Shown here piece after piece: positions 11,760-37,680 of a stretch of 64,000 nucleotides of DNA (its first letter is position 1; every line of letters begins with the position of its first letter). This stretch comes from Perna viridis. Taxonomy: Eukaryota. The stretch lies in the NCBI GenBank assembly GCA_037379345.1, contig CM074511.1:14322001-14386000 (forward strand), read 5' to 3'. Under the pieces are notes generated by a model that made no database searches, was not told the DNA's origin, and saw only the letters and a list, made by a program, of their open reading frames with translations. The position numbers were made by a program, and so were the translations under genes.

Positions 11760-12091
11760 TCGTATTTGAGCAGATGGCCTGATTTCACACGTATCTGTAA
11801 GCGCAGGTGTTCTATCTTGCAAATATTTATTTAAGATAGAAAAAAATACTTCCTGAGTATTGTTGGAAAGATCCTAATATTTTAAGTTTGATAATCTGTT
11901 CAACACAACAAATATTATAGTTTTAGAAAAATTAAGCAGATTTTTAAAGTTGATAAATATAAAAGGAAGTCCTCCGGGTTAATCTTCTAAATTCATTAAG
12001 TATTATATTTTTTCACGCATGCATATAATTGTTATACATTATATATATATGTTTCTCTTTAACTATGTACTATGTCGTTTATAAGAATAAA

Positions 12092-12125
<34 letters not shown>
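11760..12125 (+). mobile_element. 3' end fragment of a CR1-group LINE with (CAT)n tail
   Basis: Encodes ...VLEKLSRFLKLINIKGSPPG*. Its 3' UTR aligns with 28900-28978 plus 39345-39454, followed by AATAAA and a CAT repeat. 5' boundary approximate. Confidence 0.75.
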
Positions 12126-25980: not shown

Positions 25981-26584
25981 TTTAATGCCGATTTAAAGAG
26001 ATTCTTCCACGAAATTATTTCCTTCTATTCGCGCTTTTTTTGTTCATTATATTTTTATCAGAATATGTATCCAAACATTTTTGTGTTTCCTAGAACATAT
26101 TTTATACGCGTAAATAATTTTATTATAGATATAATTTTTGTATGTATTGAAAAGGTACCAGATTCCCCGATCGTTGTCCCGATAATCGGTTAAAGTATAT
26201 AAGGTTTCAGAATCCGATTTTCAGCTTCTTTTTCCCTAGTTTTGTCTCCTGAACAGATCGATATCATAGATTTAATTTATGATTAGTTGATGAAGATTTC
26301 ACTGAATCATTATGACTTTACATCTAAAACACTTTCTATGCTTTTCAAGTTTTTCACAGAGCATAAGTCAAAAGCTTTTTATTTGGAACATATTCACAAA
26401 ATTGACCTTGTTTGTTTTTAACAATGTTTGGTGCAAAATTGGTCAATTTTTATGGATTCCAGTTTGGTCAATTGTTCTCATTTTCTTGGAATCTCTCCAT
26501 CCAGAAACTGACAGATTTGCTGAATAAATAAACGTTTACACCTCCCTTTTCTCCTTTTATTTGAGATAAATTTGATCCGTTATA

Positions 26585-28978
26585 TTGGTTACGATGGACA
26601 CGTATCCTGTAAAGGAGGATCAACGGTTAACAGACAGAGTTATGACGACTAATTCTACCCTAACTGACTTTCATTATGAAAACCTTGTCAATAATAACAA
26701 TGTTCTTCTTGAACAGTGTTTACACTTCTTAGTCTTAAACGTTTGTGGTGTTAAGAATAGAATTTTATACCCTGAGTTTAGAGATCTTCTAAACGAAAAT
26801 GACATTATTTGTTTAGCAGAATCTAAATTAGATGACTTGGATGTTATAAATTTAGATAATTTTGCATTTTTCTACAAAAATAGAAAAACCTGTTCGAATC
26901 ATAAATCTGGTGGTATAATTGTTGGTTGTAAAAAGGAGTTTGAAAAACATATAGTTCCGATCGAGACAAACTGCCCATACATTTATTGGTTCAAGCTGAA
27001 TAAAATCTTGTAAATTTGCCTAATGATGTGTGTGGATTAGTTTACATTCCACCTGAAAATTCTCGATATGCATCAAATGATGAATTTAATGAGATTGAAT
27101 TAGAATTTCAAATTTTACAAAAGGATTTTTCAAACATTTTTCTTTTTGGCGATTTTAATAATAGAACTGGTAATTTGCCAGACTATTACATTTCTAGAGA
27201 GACAGAAAATAATAATTTTGATTATGAATTTTCTTTTTGTGCACAGTTTTCTGATATACAGGAAGTAGACATTTTGAATATCCTAAGAGATAGAATTTCA
27301 GTAGACAAAATTATAAATAACTATGGAAGGAAATTTTTATCATTTTGTAAAAACAACAATGTGTTTATATTAAATGGGCGAATAGCTGGTGATAGAAATG
27401 GTAAAGCAACGAGCAGAAATACAAGTGTTGTTGATTATACGTTATGTACTGCAAATATAATGCACAGGGTAAATAATTTTGAGGTGATTGATTTTAGTCT
27501 CTATTCAGATATATATTCTACTTTACATTTAGTTGTTGATATTCATAAACATCATGACTTGAACGAGAGTTATGAAGAAATGCAAACTTCTTATTCTGAC
27601 AAAATAGGTCACTGGGACCAAAACAGATTAAACGAATATAAAAATAATATTCATCTTAACGGAGTTGAAGAGCTACAATTATATACTAATATCTTATCAA
27701 AAACTGATGATCTACAAAGTGTTGATGAGAATTGTATGAATAATATTGTGCTTGAAATAACAGATGTTTTGCTTTATTCGGCAAAACAAACATTTGGTGT
27801 TCGGCGGAAAAACAAATGTCGTGAAAAATAATCCTGATAAAAATCAAACCAAAGATTGGTTTGACAAGGATTGTTATAGAAAGAGAAAAGATTTTCGAAA
27901 AGCGCGAAGATTGTACAAACGTTATGGTTCTAATATTTTTAAATAACGCCTAAAGGCTACTGAAAACATCTATAAGAAAACTTTAAATAATAGTATTAAG
28001 AATTATAAGTTTGAACTGAAGAAAAAGATGAAAATCTTTGAAAACTAATAATCCTCGTGAATACTGGAAAGTCCTGAATAGGGATAGACCAGTGCACAGT
28101 AATGATATAGAAATCGATACTTTATTTGATTATTTTAAGGAGGTAAATAAGAATTATGAAGATATACCAAATGTAATTCATCCTGGCGATTTTATTGTAA
28201 ATGCTGAGCTGAACAAAGCGATTACTAAGGAGGAAGTTATTAGAGCTATCAAAAATGCTAAAAAAAAACAAGTCTCCAGCAGATGATTTTGTAATAAATG
28301 AATATTTATGTGCTACTGTTGATGTTAGGTCTGGTGTATATGTGAATGTATTTAATATTATACATGTACTTGATACAGGAATAATGCCAGAAGCATGGCT
28401 AAATGGTAACATTATTCCACTTTTAAAAACAGAGGTAGTAAAACTGAACCTAAGAATTATAGACCTATTACACTTTTATCAAATCTTGGAAAAATCTTTG
28501 AACAGTGGCATTTACTTGTCAATGTCGACAAAACAAAAATACCTATATTTTCACCTCCATTTTACTCTAAATGGTAAAGAAGTTGAGATTGTAAAAGATT
28601 ACAAATATCTTGGTTTATATTTCGCTAAAAGTGGGTCCTTTTCAACAACCCGAAAATATCTATACCAAAAAGGTTTGAAAGCGATGTATGGTGTATTGAG
28701 AAAATGTAGACGAAACAAGCTATCTATAGATTGTCAACTAGACATTTTTGATAAACGCGTTGTTCCTATATTACTATATGGCTCTGAGATTTGGGCATTT
28801 GAAAACATGGACATTTTAGAGCGTTTACATTTAAAATTTTGCAAAAATATTTTACATTTAAAACAGTCTACTCCAGACTATATTGTATATGCCGAGCCGT
28901 TTTAGAAAAATTAAGCAGATTTGTAAAGTTGATAAATATGAAAGTCAGTCCTTCGGGTTAATCTTCCAAATTTATTAT
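26585..28978 (+). mobile_element. CR1/L2-group LINE ORF2 (AP endonuclease plus internally deleted RT), degenerate; 3' end continues at 39345-39454
   Basis: APE motifs LNVCG, ICLAESKL, SGGI, VYIPP, GDFNNRTG, SVVDY. RT flanks KSPADD, IIPL, YKYLG, PILLYGSEIW, ERLHLKFCK. The YADD core is missing (deletion near 28500). Confidence 0.9.
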
Positions 28979-29112
28979 AGTAGTTTCAAAAGGCCGATTC
29001 TGCTGCACTTACCATTTTCAAGGGGAAATCCTGCATAAGACCCCTGACCCAGAGGGCCAAATGCAAACGGACGGCATTCCTATTGAGCATAGGGTAAATA
29101 CAAGAATTATGT
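28979..29112 (+). repeat. Left terminal inverted repeat of the Polinton
   Basis: AGTAGTTTCAAAAGGCCGATT...GGGTAAATACAAGAATTATGT is the reverse complement of 39212-39344, with a divergent central patch. Confidence 0.95.
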
Positions 29113-32100
29113 CTTTCGTACAGAGCATAAGTCAGATCGTCCCAGAGGATAGTAGGGATGTGGATAAGGACACCTTAAAGCGAAGGATGTCACAGATTGA
29201 AATAAATAAAAGGATGGAATCTATTAGTGATAAGATGGGTCGCTATCAGGATTTCTTCCTGGAGAATGAGCAATATTTGGAAGATAGCACCCCAGCCCCA
29301 ACCCCCAAAAGGCAGCAGCAGTGCTGCAATGCCCCCAACCTGACGCAGGTGGATGAACACACCACGCAGTGTCAAAATTGTGGTGCAGAGGTAATGAAGC
29401 TGCGATTTGAGCATCAACCAGGGGAGCAGAAGACCACCTGCGGCGTTGAACTCAAGAGGAAGAAGGGGCAGTTCTGCAAGAGCAAGCCCGGGAAGGATGG
29501 TCTCTGCTGGAGACATAGCAGGCAACCACGTCAGGAGGAGGAGGAGGAGGTTATCCCAGTCGAGGTCGAGGGTAAGATGGTGGTGGAAGAGACCATGAAG
29601 ACCCTCCGTCAAATAGCTAAGGACGAGGATCTGAGGGGGGTCAGTAGGAAGAACAAGGAGGCCTTGGTGAAGCTCATCGAGGAGAAAACCACCCGTAGAT
29701 TTACCCGCCAGGAAGTCTTCAGCAAGAAGCAGCTCAAAGCACTGGCAAAGAATCGTGGCCTCACCAAGTACTCCCAGCTCAAGAGAGAGGATCTGCTCCG
29801 GCTGGTGGAAGAGGACATCAAAAACACCCCAGTCGAGGATGAGATCAAGGTCATCGATAGGCGTCAAGCACTGAATTGCGTATTTGGCACGGTCGTCATC
29901 GAACCCGCACCCGCGAAGCAGCACGACTTGAGCACTTTTCTGAAGGTAAGTCGGAGCATCATCACCACCATCATCTCCGATGCGCTTGCCCAAAAGAAGG
30001 GATTGAAGGTGAACTTAGTACTTCTAGCATAGCCGGTGAGGACCAATCCCGCGACTGGAAAAAATACGTACGTCACCCCCTACTTTCGATCATCTCTTGC
30101 TACCCTCACCCAGAACTGGAGATCGCTTTCATGATCGCGAAGGTCAAGGAAAGTATGGCAAGATACATGCGGGAAGGGAGTGGGTGGACTTTCAGCCGCG
30201 TCGAGAGGCTAGAAATCCACCTCAACCAATTCAAGCCGTTCAAGGGGGGTTCCTTCATTCCGACTCCATCAGCACTCGCGAAAAAGAATGCGATCGTCAA
30301 CGTGAAAAATGAGGATGATCGCTGCTTCCAGTGGGCGGTGCTGGCAGCCCTACATCATGAAGAAGTCGATCAGAAATCAGCCAACCGCGTATCTCAGTAC
30401 AAGAAATGGGAGGATGAGCTGAATTTCGAAGGCATCAACTTCCCGGTCTCGCTCAAGGCGATTGATAAATTCGAGAGGCAGAATCCCACCATCAACGTCA
30501 ACGTCTATGGGTTTAATGGGGTGAAGAAGGGTGAGGATGGTGAAGAGGATCTCCAGGTTTACCCACTCAAGATATCCAAGAATACGGGTTCCACCCACGT
30601 AGATCTTCTCTTCCTGACTAGCGAAGATAAGCAGCATTACTGCTGGATCAAGAGCCTCTCACGACTCTTAAGCTCCTAAATCTCAGAGCATGGTCACGAG
30701 CTCTTCTTCTGCCGCAGATGCCTCTCCCACTTTTCCAGGCAAGACATCTTGGACGAGCACATGGAGTAATGCACCCAGAAAGAGGCGGTCAGAATCGAGA
30801 TGCCGGAAGAAGGAGCCACCATAACCTTCCATAATCTCAAGACGATGATGAGAGTCCCCTTCGCGATATACGCGGATTTCGAGTGCTTCACGGAGAAGCT
30901 CAACACCTGTCAGCCGGATCCATCACACTCCTACACGAAGGTCCATCAACTGCAGCGACCCTCGGGTTTCTGCTATTACATGAAATACGCTCACGGCGAC
31001 TACAAAGATCCAGTCGTCTACTGCGGGGAGGATGCAGCCAAGAAATTCGTGCAGTGCATCGAGGAGGAAGTGCGGGCAATCGGTAAGCTATACAAGGAGA
31101 GTAAGCCCATGGAGATGACCGACAACGATAAGGCGAGCTTCGAAGCAAGCACGCACTGCCACATCTGTGGCGATGCATTGAGAGGGGATAAGGTCCGGGA
31201 TCACGACCATCTCACCGGGAAATATCGCGGCGCAGCGCACAACCAGTGCAATCTAGATTTCCAGCTTCCGAAGCACGTCCCCATCTTTTTCCACAATTTG
31301 AGCGGATACGACGCCCATATCTTGGTCAAGGAGCTTGGCCACACCGAGGGTAAGATCAACTGCATCCCTAATACCGACGAGAAGTATATCAGCTTCTCCA
31401 AGCAGGTGGACGATCTGGAGATGAGATTCGTCGATTCGTGCAGGTTTATGCTCTACAGCCTGGATACCCTAGCTAAGAATCTCACTCCCGACCAATTCTC
31501 GACCGTGAAGGCGAGATTCGGGGATCGCCACGAGCTAATGATTCGGAAGGGGGTATTTCCCTACGATTATATGGATGGACCGGCCAAGCTGGAAGAGACT
31601 CAGCTCCCAACCAAAGAAGCCTTCAGCACGCTCTCCGGAGAGCATATCAGTGATGAGGATTACGCACACGCTCAGAGGGTCTGGGAGACCTTCGGGTGCA
31701 AGAACCTACGCGATTATCACGACCTCTATCTCGAGACTGACGTGCTGCTGCTGACCGACATCTTTGAGGATTTCTGGGATATCTGCTTGACCCACTACGG
31801 ACTCGATCCCGCCCACTACTTCACATCCCCCGGGCTATCCTACGACGCCGCCCTCAAAACCACGGAGGTGAGATTGGAGCTGCTCTCCGATCCGGACATG
31901 TTGATGATGTTCGAGAGGGCAACCAGAGGGGTGTCGCCATGATCTCCCACCGCTACGGCAAGGCCAACAACCCCTACATGACCACGTACGACGCCTCCCA
32001 GCCCACCAAGTATCTGACCTACCTCGACGCCAACAATCTCTACGGGTGGGCAATGGCGCAGTCCCTTCCCACGGGAGACTTCGAGTGGATGGAGCCGGAG

Positions 32101-33206
32101 GAGATCGAGAAGATCCTGGAATATCCCGACGACCACGAGTACGGGCCATGGTGGAATGCGATCTGGAATATCCTCAAGATCTTCACGACGCCCAAAAAGA
32201 CTACCCTCTCGCGCCCGAGAACGTGGAGATCGGTAAAGTGCACAAGCTCGTGCCTCACCTGGGCAAGCGTGAGAAATATACCCTTCACTATCGAAATCTC
32301 AAGATGTATCTGGAGAGGGGGATGAAGCTCACCAAAGTCCATCGCATCATCGGATTCAACCAATCTCCATGGCTCAAGAAATACATCGATCTGAATACCA
32401 CTCTTCGCGCTCGGGCCAAGACCGACTCCGAGAAGGACTTCTTCAAGCTCATGAATAATTCGGTCTTCGGCAAGACCATGGAGAATATCCGGAAACGCGT
32501 CGACGTCAGGCTGGTCACCACCGAGAAGCAGGCCCTGAAGCTAGTGGCCAAGCCCAACTTCGATCGTCGCGTCGTCTTCACCGAGAATCTAGCAGCCGTT
32601 CATATGAAGAAGACCAAGCTGAAGTTCGATAAGCCCGTCTACCTGGGAGCGTGCATATTGGACATCTCGAAGTTCCTTATGTACGACTTCCACTACGGAT
32701 TCGTGAAGGAGATGTACGATGATCGTGCCCGACTACTTTTCACCGACACCGATAGCTTGGCTTACGAGATCCAGACCGCCGACTTCTACAAGGATATCAC
32801 ACCGCACGTGCAGGAAAAATTCGATACGTCCAACTACCCGACCGAGCATCCCTCCGACATCCCCACCGGCGTGAATAAGAAGGTCGTCGGGATGTTCAAG
32901 GACGAATGCGGCGGTAAGATCATGGCCGAATTCGTGGGGCTCCGGGCGAAGCTATACGCCTTCAAGATGGATGACGGTCAGACCACCGAGAAGGCGAAGG
33001 GAGTCACCAAGAGCGTCGAGGATTACAAGCGATGCCTTGAGACTCAGCAGGAGATCCACCGACCGATGAGCATCCTTCGCAGCCATCTCCATCAGATCTA
33101 CGCCGAGATCAAGATCGCTCTCTCAGCCAAGGACAATAAGCGTCACATCCTCCCCGACGGTATCAGCACCCTCGCGCATGGTCACTACCGAATCTCCCGC
33201 GACTGA
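29109..33206 (+). pseudogene. pPolB: Protein-primed family B DNA polymerase with Zn-ribbon/CCCH/Rho-N-like N-terminus, terminal-protein region, OTU-like domain, C2H2 finger and Endo VII (HNH) insertion
   Basis: Motifs EGSGW, NEDDRCFQWAV...HYCWIK (OTU-like), IYADFE, CHIC..VRDHDH..G.YRGAAHNQCN, FHNLSGYD, YLDANNLYGWAM, KLMNNSVFGKT, FTDTDS, GMFKDE. Split by stops (30030, 30677, ~30767) and frameshifts (~30060, ~31935, ~32147). Confidence 0.95.
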
Positions 33207-33337
33207 GGCGACCATCCCCAACCCATCCCCCTCCACTCAGAATTTCTCGAGGCCCATGAGCCTCGGGAAAAATCTGCACTTGTCAGGCTCTGACGGGTGC
33301 GGGACTTCGTCGGCTTCGCCTGTCCATCCATAGATAA

Positions 33338-33750
33338 ATGAGCAGCATACGAGTGCACGGTATCCCTCCCCCCACAAGCCCCTCTCCAACGTAGAGCTGG
33401 AAGAAGCTGCCACGGCCCTAGGCATCCCTCGATTCAGAGGAATATTCATGCGCGATGCCCTACCACCCAACCCCCATCCCACCGAGTGCGGCATCCTGAA
33501 TCACGACGATCGTCATGGTCAGGGCACGCACTGGACATGCTGGCATAAGCGCGGAGGATTCAAAGTCTACTTCGACCCTTACGGCCTACCTCCACCCGAC
33601 GAGATGGTCGACTATCTGCGGCCGGAAATTCGATATAATACCGATGAGCTCCAGCGGCGTGGCGATGTGGTCTGCGGACACTTTTGCCTGCACGTACTGA
33701 AGCTCTTATCGGAAGGTCGGACGCTTGAGGAGGTGATCTTCGGATTATAG
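33338..33750 (+). pseudogene. Adenain-like cysteine maturation protease (frameshift near the N-terminus)
   Basis: GTHW, YFDPYG and LQ....CGHFC catalytic motifs. ATG at 33338 sits in the ATAGATAAATG motif but is out of frame with 33448. Confidence 0.9.
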
Positions 33751-33754
33751 ATAA

Positions 33755-34195
33755 ATGGATAAGTTTGGATCTCACTCGAGAAAGCGCATGCCCGTCTGGC
33801 GGATGCTTCAGGATCTCGATATGAGAGATCATCGGATCACCAGCCTCGGTTTGCCCCGAGACAGCTCGGACGCCGTGACGAAGCGATGGGTCGGTCAACA
33901 ATTGAAAGACAGCATGAAAGACATCGACGAGCTAGATTCGGAGATTAAGCAGATGCAAAAGGAGCATGACGCATCGATCAAAGACCTGGCCAAAGAGCTG
34001 ATGGCCGTAGAAGATGGCAAAGTCAATAAGTCAGACAGCGGCAAGGTAAATTCGGATCTAGACATGCAAAAGTATCACCTGCTAAATCTCCCACTCCCCC
34101 GGACTGATAACGAGCCCATCACAAAAGCACTTTACGACCGCTTGAAAGAGGATCTAGACGCATTAAGGCTCTTCGTCGAACTGAAGCATGCGTAA
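33755..34195 (+). CDS. Fibre/spike-like protein with two DM..(R)I..L..P....DA.TK repeats flanking a coiled coil
   Basis: DLDMRDHRITSLGLPRDSSDAVTKRWV and DLDMQKYHLLNLPLPRTDNEPITKALY resemble the neck/stalk repeats of trimeric fibres and adhesins. Confidence 0.6.
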   Translation: MDKFGSHSRKRMPVWRMLQDLDMRDHRITSLGLPRDSSDAVTKRWVGQQLKDSMKDIDELDSEIKQMQKEHDASIKDLAKELMAVEDGKVNKSDSGKVNSDLDMQKYHLLNLPLPRTDNEPITKALYDRLKEDLDALRLFVELKHA

Positions 34196-34245
34196 ATCAA
34201 GACTTTCTGGTCTCCTTTGATCGAATACGGAAAGCCTGCTGGGGA

Positions 34246-35150
34246 TCATTGCAAGTCAGACTCCTTGATCCAGGAATTGAATTCTTTGGGGTAGCCTCTC
34301 CACTTGACGTAGATTTCCTTCGTCCCTCCTCGGGTCCGCCGGCGAAAGATTTTCTGGTCGGTGTGCTGGAGCTCGGGCTCATAAAAGGATCCCTTGATTT
34401 CCTCACCCTCATAGTCTTTGAGACGATAGGTGGGCGGCTGTGTCGCTAGGGTCTGGGTGATGGTGAAGATTTCCTCCGTCCAGCGCGGAGTATATCCCTT
34501 CTCGAAGATGTCCTTCTTCCTGGTGATCCGGACCTTATCGCCGACGTTGAATCGCTGAGGCTGATGAGTGGGAGGTCTCCGTAGAGATTCCAGAAGACCT
34601 TGGACTCGTGCTCTTTCTGGCTGGCGGCGGTAGGGGTCATCTTGATGGATCGATGCTTGGTGGTATTATACTGGCGGACGAGATCGTCCAGGACGGGAAG
34701 GTAGGTCCGCGTGGAATTGGCCGAGAATTATTTGAACATCTTTTCCTTCATGGTACGATTCCAGCGCTCGACCACGCTCGATTTTTCCTCGTTCTCGGTG
34801 GAGTAGAGATCGACGTCGTGCTTCCGGAGCAGATCCTTCACCTCACGATTGTAAAATTCCGTGCCCTTATCGGTCCATAGATTCTCAGGCGTGCGGTCCT
34901 TGAAGACGGTCCGGAAGGCATCTCCTTCTCGTGGCGCCTTTCTTATCCTTAAGCGGTACCACCCAGCTGTACTTTGAAAAGACGTCGATGATGCTCAGGA
35001 GATTCTTGAAGCCTCGGTTATCGCGGGAGAAGGCGCTCATATCCACGAAATCGGCAGCCCAGGTCTCATCCACCCCACCTACCACCACGCGACGCTTCTA
35101 AAATTTGCGTCGGACTGGCTTATGCAGCTCTTCGGCTAGCTCGTCCGACC
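34246..35150 (-). pseudogene. Retroviral-like (rve) DDE integrase with C-terminal chromodomain
   Basis: WSDELAEELHKP, WAADFVDM (D), IDVFSKY, WTDKGTEF (D), SVVERWNRT (E), KGYTPRWTEE, YVKWRGYPKEFNSWI. Stop TGA at 34246-34248. Several disruptions. Confidence 0.93.
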
Positions 35151-35638
35151 ATTGTACTTTTTTTTTCACGCCCAGCCCAAATCGTGCTTTGGTGCCGAGG
35201 ATGGGTCTTACGATGCCACGCTCGAGGCGCTCGCGTGCGGTGGGATTGGGGATCACATCAAGGGAGGCTAGCATCGTCTTATCGCAGATCTAATTGCGTG
35301 CGGTCGTATCCTTATGCTTGGCATAGCATAGATCGTGACGATAGACAGCCTGATCCACTCGATTGATTGGCATTGACCGAGGTTTGGGAGTACCATTTGC
35401 ACTTTTTGAGGTTGGTCCCGGGGCCGGTGAAATTATGCCCAGGAAGATGCATCTCCACGGGCATCCGATTGATCATTTTATTCATGAGTCCGGCGCCGGA
35501 AGCAGCCACGAACTGAGACTTCCTAGCCCCGCATACGGCGCATAGCCCACCCCTTCGCCGCCTCCCATTGCTGGTGGTGGTCTCATAGCGACTTTATGTC
35601 TCGGTCGGCCGCTTGCACTTCAAGCAATACAGTCCCAT
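35151..35638 (-). pseudogene. Zn-ribbon plus parvovirus VP1-type phospholipase A2 domain, running in frame into the integrase
   Basis: MGLYCLKCKR...NGR....GLCAVCGARKSQF; MHLPGHNFTGPGT (Ca-loop); PINRVDQAVYRHDLCY (catalytic HD..Y); ends KARFGLGVKKK. Confidence 0.85.
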
Positions 35639-35651
35639 TTTATATAGATAA

Positions 35652-36040
35652 ATGGACGTTGAAGACCTTACCTACGATGAGCCCACCGCGAGTCGTCGGC
35701 ATAACCACTTTCTCCTCCCGCAGCGATCCATCCGAGGTCTGATCATCGGAAAGTCGGACTGCGGCAAGACGACGCTGCTGAATAACCTCCTCCTGCGCGA
35801 TGGATGGCTCGACTACGATCGCCTCTACGTCTTCGGAAAATCTATCAGCTGCTCTGGCAGGCGCTGGGAAAGGGGTTTTCAAAAGACGATATCCGCGACC
35901 TTCTCTCCATCAAGGATCGCTACCCCCACTCTTTGGTCGACTTGGTGCAGATGATGAAGCCGCCGACCAAGCCTAGCGGTATCGAACCTTTCTTCTTTGA
36001 GCAAGCGAGCGATGTGCCGGATTCTCGAAAGCTCGATCCC
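35652..36040 (+). pseudogene. A32/FtsK-like packaging ATPase, N-terminal half only
   Basis: RGLIIGKSDCGKTTLLNNLL (Walker A). Sequence ends at DVPDSRKLDPK, before Walker B. Confidence 0.85.
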
Positions 36041-37185
36041 AAGATCTCTTCCTCCACCCCGCCGAAAGCTATCTCTTGATCGAAGGCCGACTTCAGAAGA
36101 ACGATGGCACCGCGTATGCCGACGGTGATCTGGTATCGCTCGCCCATAATGGTGCCATGTATCTCTTTCGCAGCATCAGCTACCGACTTTCCGGGCAGCA
36201 GATTGAGCACCTCAACGATCCCGGCGTTGCCACCACCATGCTGGGTATGCTGAAGTACCCCGACGACTTTTTTCAAATACCAAGGCCTCAACCAGCTATG
36301 GTTCAAGGATTTCACCACCAATGCCGAGGCAGAAAACGTCGGATTCGCAGCACGTCACGGATATATCATCACCAAGCCAGCCAATAAGGGATTCTTTTCT
36401 TTCGCCATCCCGCTCAAGCACGTCTTTGGCTTTGCCGAGGACTACGATAAGATCGTCTACGGATTCAAGCACGAGCTCTCCCTGGTGCGCGATTCGGATG
36501 CAAATGCCATCCTCCGAGCTGCTGTCGTCAACGACGTGGCCAAGATAATCCTGAGCAAGGTCTCCTGGTTCGTCCCCACGTCATCCCTTCTGACGAAAAG
36601 AAGCTGCGGCTCTATAAGACCATCCAGAGCAAGACCAAGATCGATTGCGGATTTCGTATGAGGCAGTGCGACTCCATCGCCGTACCCCAAACATCACAAT
36701 TCCACTGGCGTCTGGCCGCTAAAAGCGGACGTGAGAAACCGCGATGGATCATCGTCGCCTTCCAGACCGATAGGGGTAATAACCAGCTGAATAATGCCGC
36801 CGTCTTCGACCACTGTCGATTGCGAAATATCCACGCGACCCTCAATGCGGAGCGATATCCCGCCGTGGATTTCAATGCCGGCTTCACCCAGTGCAGGATT
36901 GCCAGGGTATATAAGGAGGCCACCGAATTCCGCAAGTTCTACAGCATGGAAAGTCTGCTGAGCAATGGTGGTATCAATCCCTCCGACTTCATCGATCTCT
37001 TTCCCCTTTTCGTCATCGACGTGAGCCATCAGTCTGAGCGGCTGAAAGAGTCGACGGTGGATATCCAGATCCGAGCCGATTTCGAGCGCAACGTCCCTGC
37101 CAATACCCAAGCCTTCGCCCTGGTCATCTCCGATCGAATCCTCCAATTCGAATCCAACGGTCAGAAGATGAGCGTCGTCTTCTGA
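36040..37185 (+). pseudogene. Double jelly-roll major capsid protein, N-terminally deleted and frameshifted
   Basis: DLFLHPAESYLLIEG, MYLFRSISY.L.GQQIE, FAIPLKHVFGFAEDYDK, EKPRWIIVAFQT, FDHC, ERYP, PLFVIDVSHQ are typical Polinton MCP segments. Confidence 0.88.
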
Positions 37186-37199
37186 GGAGGGATAGATAA

Positions 37200-37680
37200 A
37201 TGGACGCTTCACTTCGGCGGAAAATCGCCTCCAATACCGAACCCAAGCATGGGTTCTCCTTCATCATCTCTGGGAACGATAGCCAGATCTTGACCCGCTT
37301 CAATCCACCCCTCCAATTGCGCGAGGAGAAATCTTACGAGATGGCCCTAGTGAATCTGGAGATCTACTACTCCATCCCCAATATTCATGCAGGTTAAGGT
37401 CCTTCTCGATGCCAATCGTGCGACGCTGAGAGCAACCCTCACCCTCGCCAGAAATTATCGAGTGGATTTCGACGTGTCCAATAGCATCAGTACAGTGCTT
37501 GGATTCGAGCGCCGGACGTATACCTACGACCGAAGCACCAACGGCTACGCGGAGGGTGAGAATATCGTCAATACCATCAGCATCAATAGCATCCTGGTGA
37601 ATAGTGATATCATCCACGGAAGCTACGTCAACGGCACGCAGCAGTCCACCATCTATAGCTTCTTTCCCGCTGTCGATCCG
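37200..37680 (+). pseudogene. Minor capsid (penton) protein, internally and C-terminally deleted
   Basis: FNPPLQL....YEMALVNL..YYSIPNI; VLGF; INSILVNSDII.GSYVNG....IYSFFP. Confidence 0.85.

Follow-up and report, generated by a model that had tools for sequence, protein, structure and literature searches.

How the integrase of animal Polintons is expressed and delivered to the incoming genome is a question touched on by a locus in the genome of Perna viridis (GCA_037379345.1, contig CM074511.1), where a Zn ribbon, a parvovirus-type PLA2 domain, an rve integrase and a chromodomain follow one another within an analyzed stretch of 64,000 nt (positions 14,322,001–14,386,000 of the forward strand; hereafter, the window). 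In an earlier note on this DNA, the four domains were described as one reading frame joined through an A9 run. The arrangement does exist in a known group of viruses, but was wrongly described as one ORF in the window copy.

The element and the window copy of the locus

The locus belongs to a decayed element of 10.4 kb, which is an endogenous adintovirus/Polinton (Table 1). The defining marks of Polintons and adintoviruses, a 6-bp target duplication and terminal inverted repeats whose ends read AG...CT, were both found here, together with the rve integrase with a C-terminal chromodomain that is characteristic of the group. The aligned arms of the inverted repeats (29001–29112 and 39212–39323) comprise 112 nt and match at 91%. 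The GC content is ~0.49–0.56 inside the element versus ~0.32 in its flanks. In addition, an empty paralogous insertion site was found at ~11990–12010. The surrounding segment of the window (11920–12097) matches both flanks of the element (28899–28977 and 39359–39448), the virus having inserted into a host repeat. Broken ORFs resembling LINE endonuclease/reverse transcriptase (26576–28905, plus strand; identified by eye) adjoin the left end of the element, and a host exon with a C2 domain is located at 49705–49971 on the minus strand (PF00168, E 6.5e-16). Among the matches listed, the only host-labelled close protein matches were Mytilus proteins.

The double jelly-roll capsid, penton, packaging ATPase and adenain were all found in the element, the penton only via similarity to the locus L001, and most of the genes are broken. 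L001 (contig CBDDTI010000304.1) was the one usable locus of two obtained in a GTDB scan. It is an animal-type adintovirus contig within a GTDB bacterial genome bin, where it is probably a binning contaminant. The gene for Zn-ribbon-PLA2 and that for the ATPase are arranged head-to-head, their starts being separated by 13 nt in the window (35638–35652) and by 34 nt in L001. An ATG at the end of both terminal repeats (29109 and 39215) opens an inward-pointing ORF. The exact motif ATAGATAAAT has six matches in the 64-kb window, five of them at gene starts of the element, and is a candidate promoter or initiator common to these genes. The TAAATG with which it ends presumably resembles poxvirus late promoters.

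Table 1. Features of the element and of its Zn ribbon-PLA2-integrase-chromodomain region (positions in the window).
Feature	Position	Strand	Remarks
Endogenous adintovirus/Polinton, decayed	28979–39344	.	10.4 kb
6-bp target duplication, left copy	28973–28978	+	right copy 39345–39350 agrees at 5/6
Left terminal inverted repeat	28979–29112	+	starts AGTAGT
Right terminal inverted repeat	39212–39344	-	
PF03175 match, type B DNA polymerase (PolB)	30770–33206	+	E 5e-11
Adenain-like cysteine protease	33334–33750	+	adenovirus protease 1avp, E 0.0025
Chromodomain and stop codon	34246–34353	-	~6 residues absent at chromodomain start
rve integrase without its own start	34354–35157	-	two frameshifts (near 34950–34935, near 34600–34572), two stops (35100–35098, 34730–34728)
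Predicted stem-loop	35106–35151	-	6 nt past the A run; -18.2 kcal/mol, z -3.0; unmatched in L001
A9 run (Lys-Lys-Lys), in frame in the window copy	35158–35166	-	register differs among relatives
F-G-L-G-V motif, PLA2 C-border	35167–35181	-	candidate protease site (inferred)
Parvovirus-type PLA2 domain	35182–35460	-	GPG loop, HD and D motifs; frameshift near 35402, stop 35292–35290
G-A-G-L motif, between Zn ribbon and PLA2	35486–35497	-	candidate protease site (inferred)
Start codon and CxxC...CxxC Zn ribbon (DUF5679)	35510–35638	-	in-frame stop 35596–35594
Packaging ATPase, broken	35652–36040	+	head-to-head with the Zn-ribbon-PLA2 gene
PF21738 match	36001–37185	+	E 7e-39
Core-like protein, repeated G-x-G-L motifs, broken	37667–38146	+	
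Motif ATAGATAAAT at element gene starts	33330, 33747, 35644, 37192, 38169	+	

The order and identity of the four domains, as given in the earlier note, were borne out. Profile searches with pieces of the window sequence matched DUF5679 (E 1.6e-10) and the chromodomain (E 1.4e-7), the start of PLA2 matched PF08398 under the cut-off (E 0.009), and DUF5679, PF08398, rve and chromo all scored on the intact relatives P0003 and P0010. The A run is indeed 9 nt long (35166–35158), and the PLA2 C-terminus reads across it in a single frame as GLGV-KKK-VQWSDELAEELHKP, passing without a stop into WSDELAEELHKP. The claims that the integrase lacks an in-frame ATG and a promoter motif also agree with the sequence: the first Met (35040) comes after the first core Asp (35052), the one ATG of the junction (35152) is out of the integrase frame, and no exact ATAGATAAAT was found near the integrase start. 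The single intact ORF, in contrast, is ruled out by three frameshifts and four stops in the window copy. This copy is part of a dead element, and its in-frame A9 probably represents one state of an unstable homopolymer that occurs in three registers.

Fused and short forms among relatives

All three PLA2 motifs (GPG calcium loop, HD dyad and downstream Asp) were present in 110 of 120 relatives. The structural model of a short form (P0058) matched viral PLA2s, with E values of 1e-3 to 5e-2 for parvoviral VP1, and weakly matched rice PLA2 (Z 8.0, rmsd 4.0, 90 aligned); in a Foldseek search with the PLA2 model, no PDB entry was matched at E 0.001. By its motifs and predicted fold, the domain is of the parvovirus type, with a putative phospholipase activity. 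The model of the fused protein P0003 matched retroviral integrases (E 9e-10), and the later core D and E aligned with those of the foamy virus integrase. The C-terminal pX-like domain of PLA2X is absent from this group, and the proteins end or enter the integrase directly past G-x-G. In two Mytilus proteins (P0064 and P0067), PLA2 is joined straight to the chromodomain region; these are apparently internal-deletion derivatives without the integrase core.

To a junction query of 143 residues, searched against 540 candidates, 56 longer homologues were found, 44 of which cover at least 90% of the query and span both halves. Atlas clusters with both PLA2 and rve contain 111, 72 and 184 members. 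The fusion product postulated in the earlier note is thus supported, and its origin as a one-off indel is excluded by fused relatives at ~40–87% identity.

The fused form is nevertheless a minority state among the relatives identified by sequence similarity. With residues 1–140 of P0003 as a query, 684 short matches (30–244 aa; 691 candidates) were obtained versus 64 long matches (245–781 aa; 234 candidates), although short matches may also be contig-end fragments. Among the long matches, 46 were recognized as fused by pattern (858 members), and several further fusions were missed by the pattern. Exactly 166 aa were found in 51 of the best 120 of the 684 short matches. In-frame clusters are sometimes large (300, 365 and 88 members). 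A set of 150 distant representatives, comprising 94 without a junction by pattern, 37 ending within 35 aa, 14 with other tails and 5 fused, loosely backs a split majority. No match was found in the phage and plasmid collections searched.

Reading register at the A run

Where the integrase begins in a different frame, that frame fixes which residues precede the stop, and the C-terminal tail of a short protein therefore reveals the frame that follows. According to rules written after the tails had been seen, the registers inferred from these short tails for the best 120 of the 684 short matches were -1 in 77 (5,841 of 6,226 member sequences) and +1 in 14 (279 member sequences); the rest were 6 truncated fusions and 23 proteins fitting no rule. 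Such member counts may reflect few host genomes. Two automated scorers, which are weak on 3-residue tails, assigned 44 and 34 proteins to -1 and 16 and 15 to +1, respectively, leaving 49 and 56 of the 120 undecided, and the rule-based count was used instead. A codon-position test on distinct tails was not significant (17/19, p 0.17). In L001, the one relative available as DNA, the PLA2 and integrase ORFs are both intact and overlap at an A7 run, with the integrase in +1. Across the sequences compared, the PLA2 and integrase coding regions adjoin or overlap each other at the Lys/A run, most relatives stop a few codons later, by their tails most often in the -1 register, and some are fused outright.

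A tree based on PLA2 only contained 127 tips (65 -1, 47 in-frame and 15 +1), with unassigned tails and duplicates dropped and long forms over-sampled. The register label changes 36 times on this tree versus a mean of 50 for shuffled labels (minimum 41), and its midpoint root is -1 by parsimony. Moreover, 33 of the 47 in-frame tips have a -1 relative that is at least 90% identical. It follows that the register of the A run flips often. Within the 14-tip clade of the window copy, -1 is not in the majority (4 in-frame, 6 +1 and 4 -1), which speaks against the -1 model.

The earlier note had set the fusion against an arrangement in which PLA2 ends at a conserved stop and the integrase has its own ATG. 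The result is divided: PLA2 mostly ends at a stop, which speaks against the fusion, yet there is no separate ATG for the integrase, which speaks for it. Of 46 fused proteins, 1 has a Met in the segment from G-x-G to the first core Asp, and in the L001 integrase the first Met is residue 53 and the Asp is residue 49. The count covers the fused proteins and the L001 DNA, as relatives available as proteins only leave room for an upstream ATG in a shifted frame. We take the first core Asp to be the D of WxxD, assigned via the start of the rve profile and known integrase motifs. With this assignment, the integrase has no start codon of its own before the predicted first catalytic Asp, and annotations beginning at the first ATG would omit this residue. 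In the portion of the PMC11071296 supplement covered here, Adinto13074 and AdiHACZ01167797 share this type of Zn-ribbon-PLA2, which stops after GLG, and their integrase is annotated from a Met downstream of the Asp, whereas other adintovirus integrases have a Met just before EELH.

The predominance of short over long forms (684 vs. 64), the -1 tails in 77 of 120 short matches, the Met-less integrase and the -1 root of the tree together make it probable that the integrase is produced as an extension to the C-terminus of the Zn-ribbon-PLA2 protein, in most cases via slippage at the A run. The role of the A run as a slippage site setting the PLA2:fusion ratio, suggested in the earlier note, is backed in relatives, but with the logic reversed, as most of them stop just past the run and must shift to enter the integrase, while the window copy is in frame.

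Slippage could also be blind to the register if RNA polymerase stuttering or ribosome sliding produced all frames, which differs from the -1 shift in mechanism only. Both -1 and +1 registers occur (the latter in L001, among others), and ribosomes do slide on A runs according to the covered part of PMC4363877. The runs are, however, short (A7 in L001 and A9 in the window), and -1 dominates the overall sample; we consider this explanation unlikely. As the same source, in the part covered, describes little sliding on A9–A10 in E. coli extracts, simple sliding is not assured. Of the X XXY YYZ form of a slippery heptamer, the A AAA AAA/G sequence is present in the A runs of the window and L001 and is elsewhere implied by Lys runs only. 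A downstream ORF in the -1 frame without a start fits 77 of the best 120 short relatives, whereas the window copy is in frame, and the register in L001 is +1. A -1 programmed frameshift would also call for a conserved stimulatory structure 5–9 nt downstream. The stem-loop predicted downstream of the run in the window was equalled in stability by 3 of 200 shuffles, and 4 of 268 gene windows fold as well. The corresponding fold in L001 is unremarkable (z +0.67), the 3' arms lie in non-homologous positions in the window and L001, and no Rfam match to the stem-loop was found.

It is quite unlikely that a constitutive in-frame fusion is the functional form and that the split copies are homopolymer mutants or errors of assembly, spread passively. 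In its favour, P0003 as the closest protein is fused, fused clusters of 300 and 365 members exist, one of which has no Lys run, the Atlas has clusters of fused proteins, and two 'PLA2-Integrase' genes have been published (PMC11071296 supplement, portion covered). On the other hand, this reading has to account for the 684 short versus 64 long matches, the exact length of 166 aa in 51 of the best 120, and the -1 signature, which recurs in several clades with differing flanking residues. An integrase mRNA of its own, formed by splicing or read from a non-AUG start, is improbable: it would render the junction register irrelevant and the in-frame join accidental, which suits the presence of all three registers among near-identical relatives, the +1 register of the intact-looking L001 and the gene-caller starts of some integrases one residue before RW (possibly a GTG codon), but the start motif of the element is absent near the integrase, the upstream sequence is A-rich with no pyrimidine tract, the residue before RW varies (V, I or A), and clean fusions exist in distant lineages, as far as the sources covered show.

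Proposed arrangement and relation to known systems

For the slippage-dependent extension, a more specific form is possible and is offered tentatively. In widespread animal Polinton-type viruses, a retrovirus-like programmed -1 frameshift may join the integrase to the PLA2 entry protein, giving a few integrase-chromodomain molecules per virion that are released by the protease. In the slippage-dependent reading as a whole, most ribosomes would produce a Zn-ribbon-PLA2 protein of ~166 aa, which would be among the minor proteins of the virion and aid endosome breach, while a minority would shift at the A run and yield a ~465-aa fusion. A -1 ribosomal frameshift would be the most likely route, followed by polymerase slippage. 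The fusion would be packaged via its PLA2 half, and the protease of the element would release the integrase-chromodomain part at G-x-G for integration of the incoming genome.

All 35 aligned short proteins have G-x-G at the C-border of PLA2, its N-border commonly shows GG or GAG, and the core-like protein repeats G-x-G-L. According to the covered part of PMC6048507, the mavirus protease cleaves GG|X and GX|G, and the integrase is present in mavirus virions. Given the invariant G-x-G and this specificity, cleavage by adenain at the glycine sites bordering PLA2 is plausible, and packaging of the fusion into virions may occur, by precedent. Mavirus thus shares a virion integrase and a protease-cleaved hydrolase with the proposed arrangement, but its integrase and hydrolase are separate genes.

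The alpha-type adintoviruses with PLA2X, as presented in the covered part of PMC8502044, likewise contain terminal inverted repeats, PolB, adenain, ATPase, hexon, penton, a parvovirus-type PLA2 and an rve integrase with a chromodomain. However, their PLA2X has a C-terminal pX-like tail and their integrase has a Met just before EELH, whereas in the window group PLA2 carries an N-terminal Zn ribbon, has no pX tail and is followed by a Met-less integrase. In the 'PLA2-Integrase' genes of Adinto15303 and Adinto6405 (PMC11071296 supplement, portion covered), PLA2 is also in frame with the rve integrase and joined just past G-x-G. These genes, known by their labels, differ in being constitutive fusions with no Lys run and no fused Zn ribbon, and the Zn-ribbon type appears as two separate genes in the same portion of the supplement. 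Frameshift isoforms of adintoviruses have been predicted (Penton+, Hexon-Adenain and PLA2X-Adenain; PMC11071296). They share read-through at a slippery site from a virion protein into its neighbour, but the integrase is not among the cases proposed in the text portions covered. Among the matches listed in a search of mainly open-access literature, no proposal of a PLA2-to-integrase shift was found. The fusion was already known from annotation, and the slippage-dependent start-less integrase appears to be new.

In the gag-pol system of retroviruses and LTR elements, an abundant particle protein receives a low-level shifted extension with the integrase, which is processed by the protease of the element. 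The arrangement proposed here differs in that the virus has dsDNA, the carrier is a PLA2 entry protein and not a capsid protein, there is no reverse transcriptase and the protease is a separate gene. A gag-pol-like arrangement would be a specific answer to the question of integrase expression and delivery in animal Polintons. If this is true, many database integrases of the group are annotated without their first catalytic residue, and a dsDNA virus with a retroviral-type integrase would have converged on the retroviral strategy.
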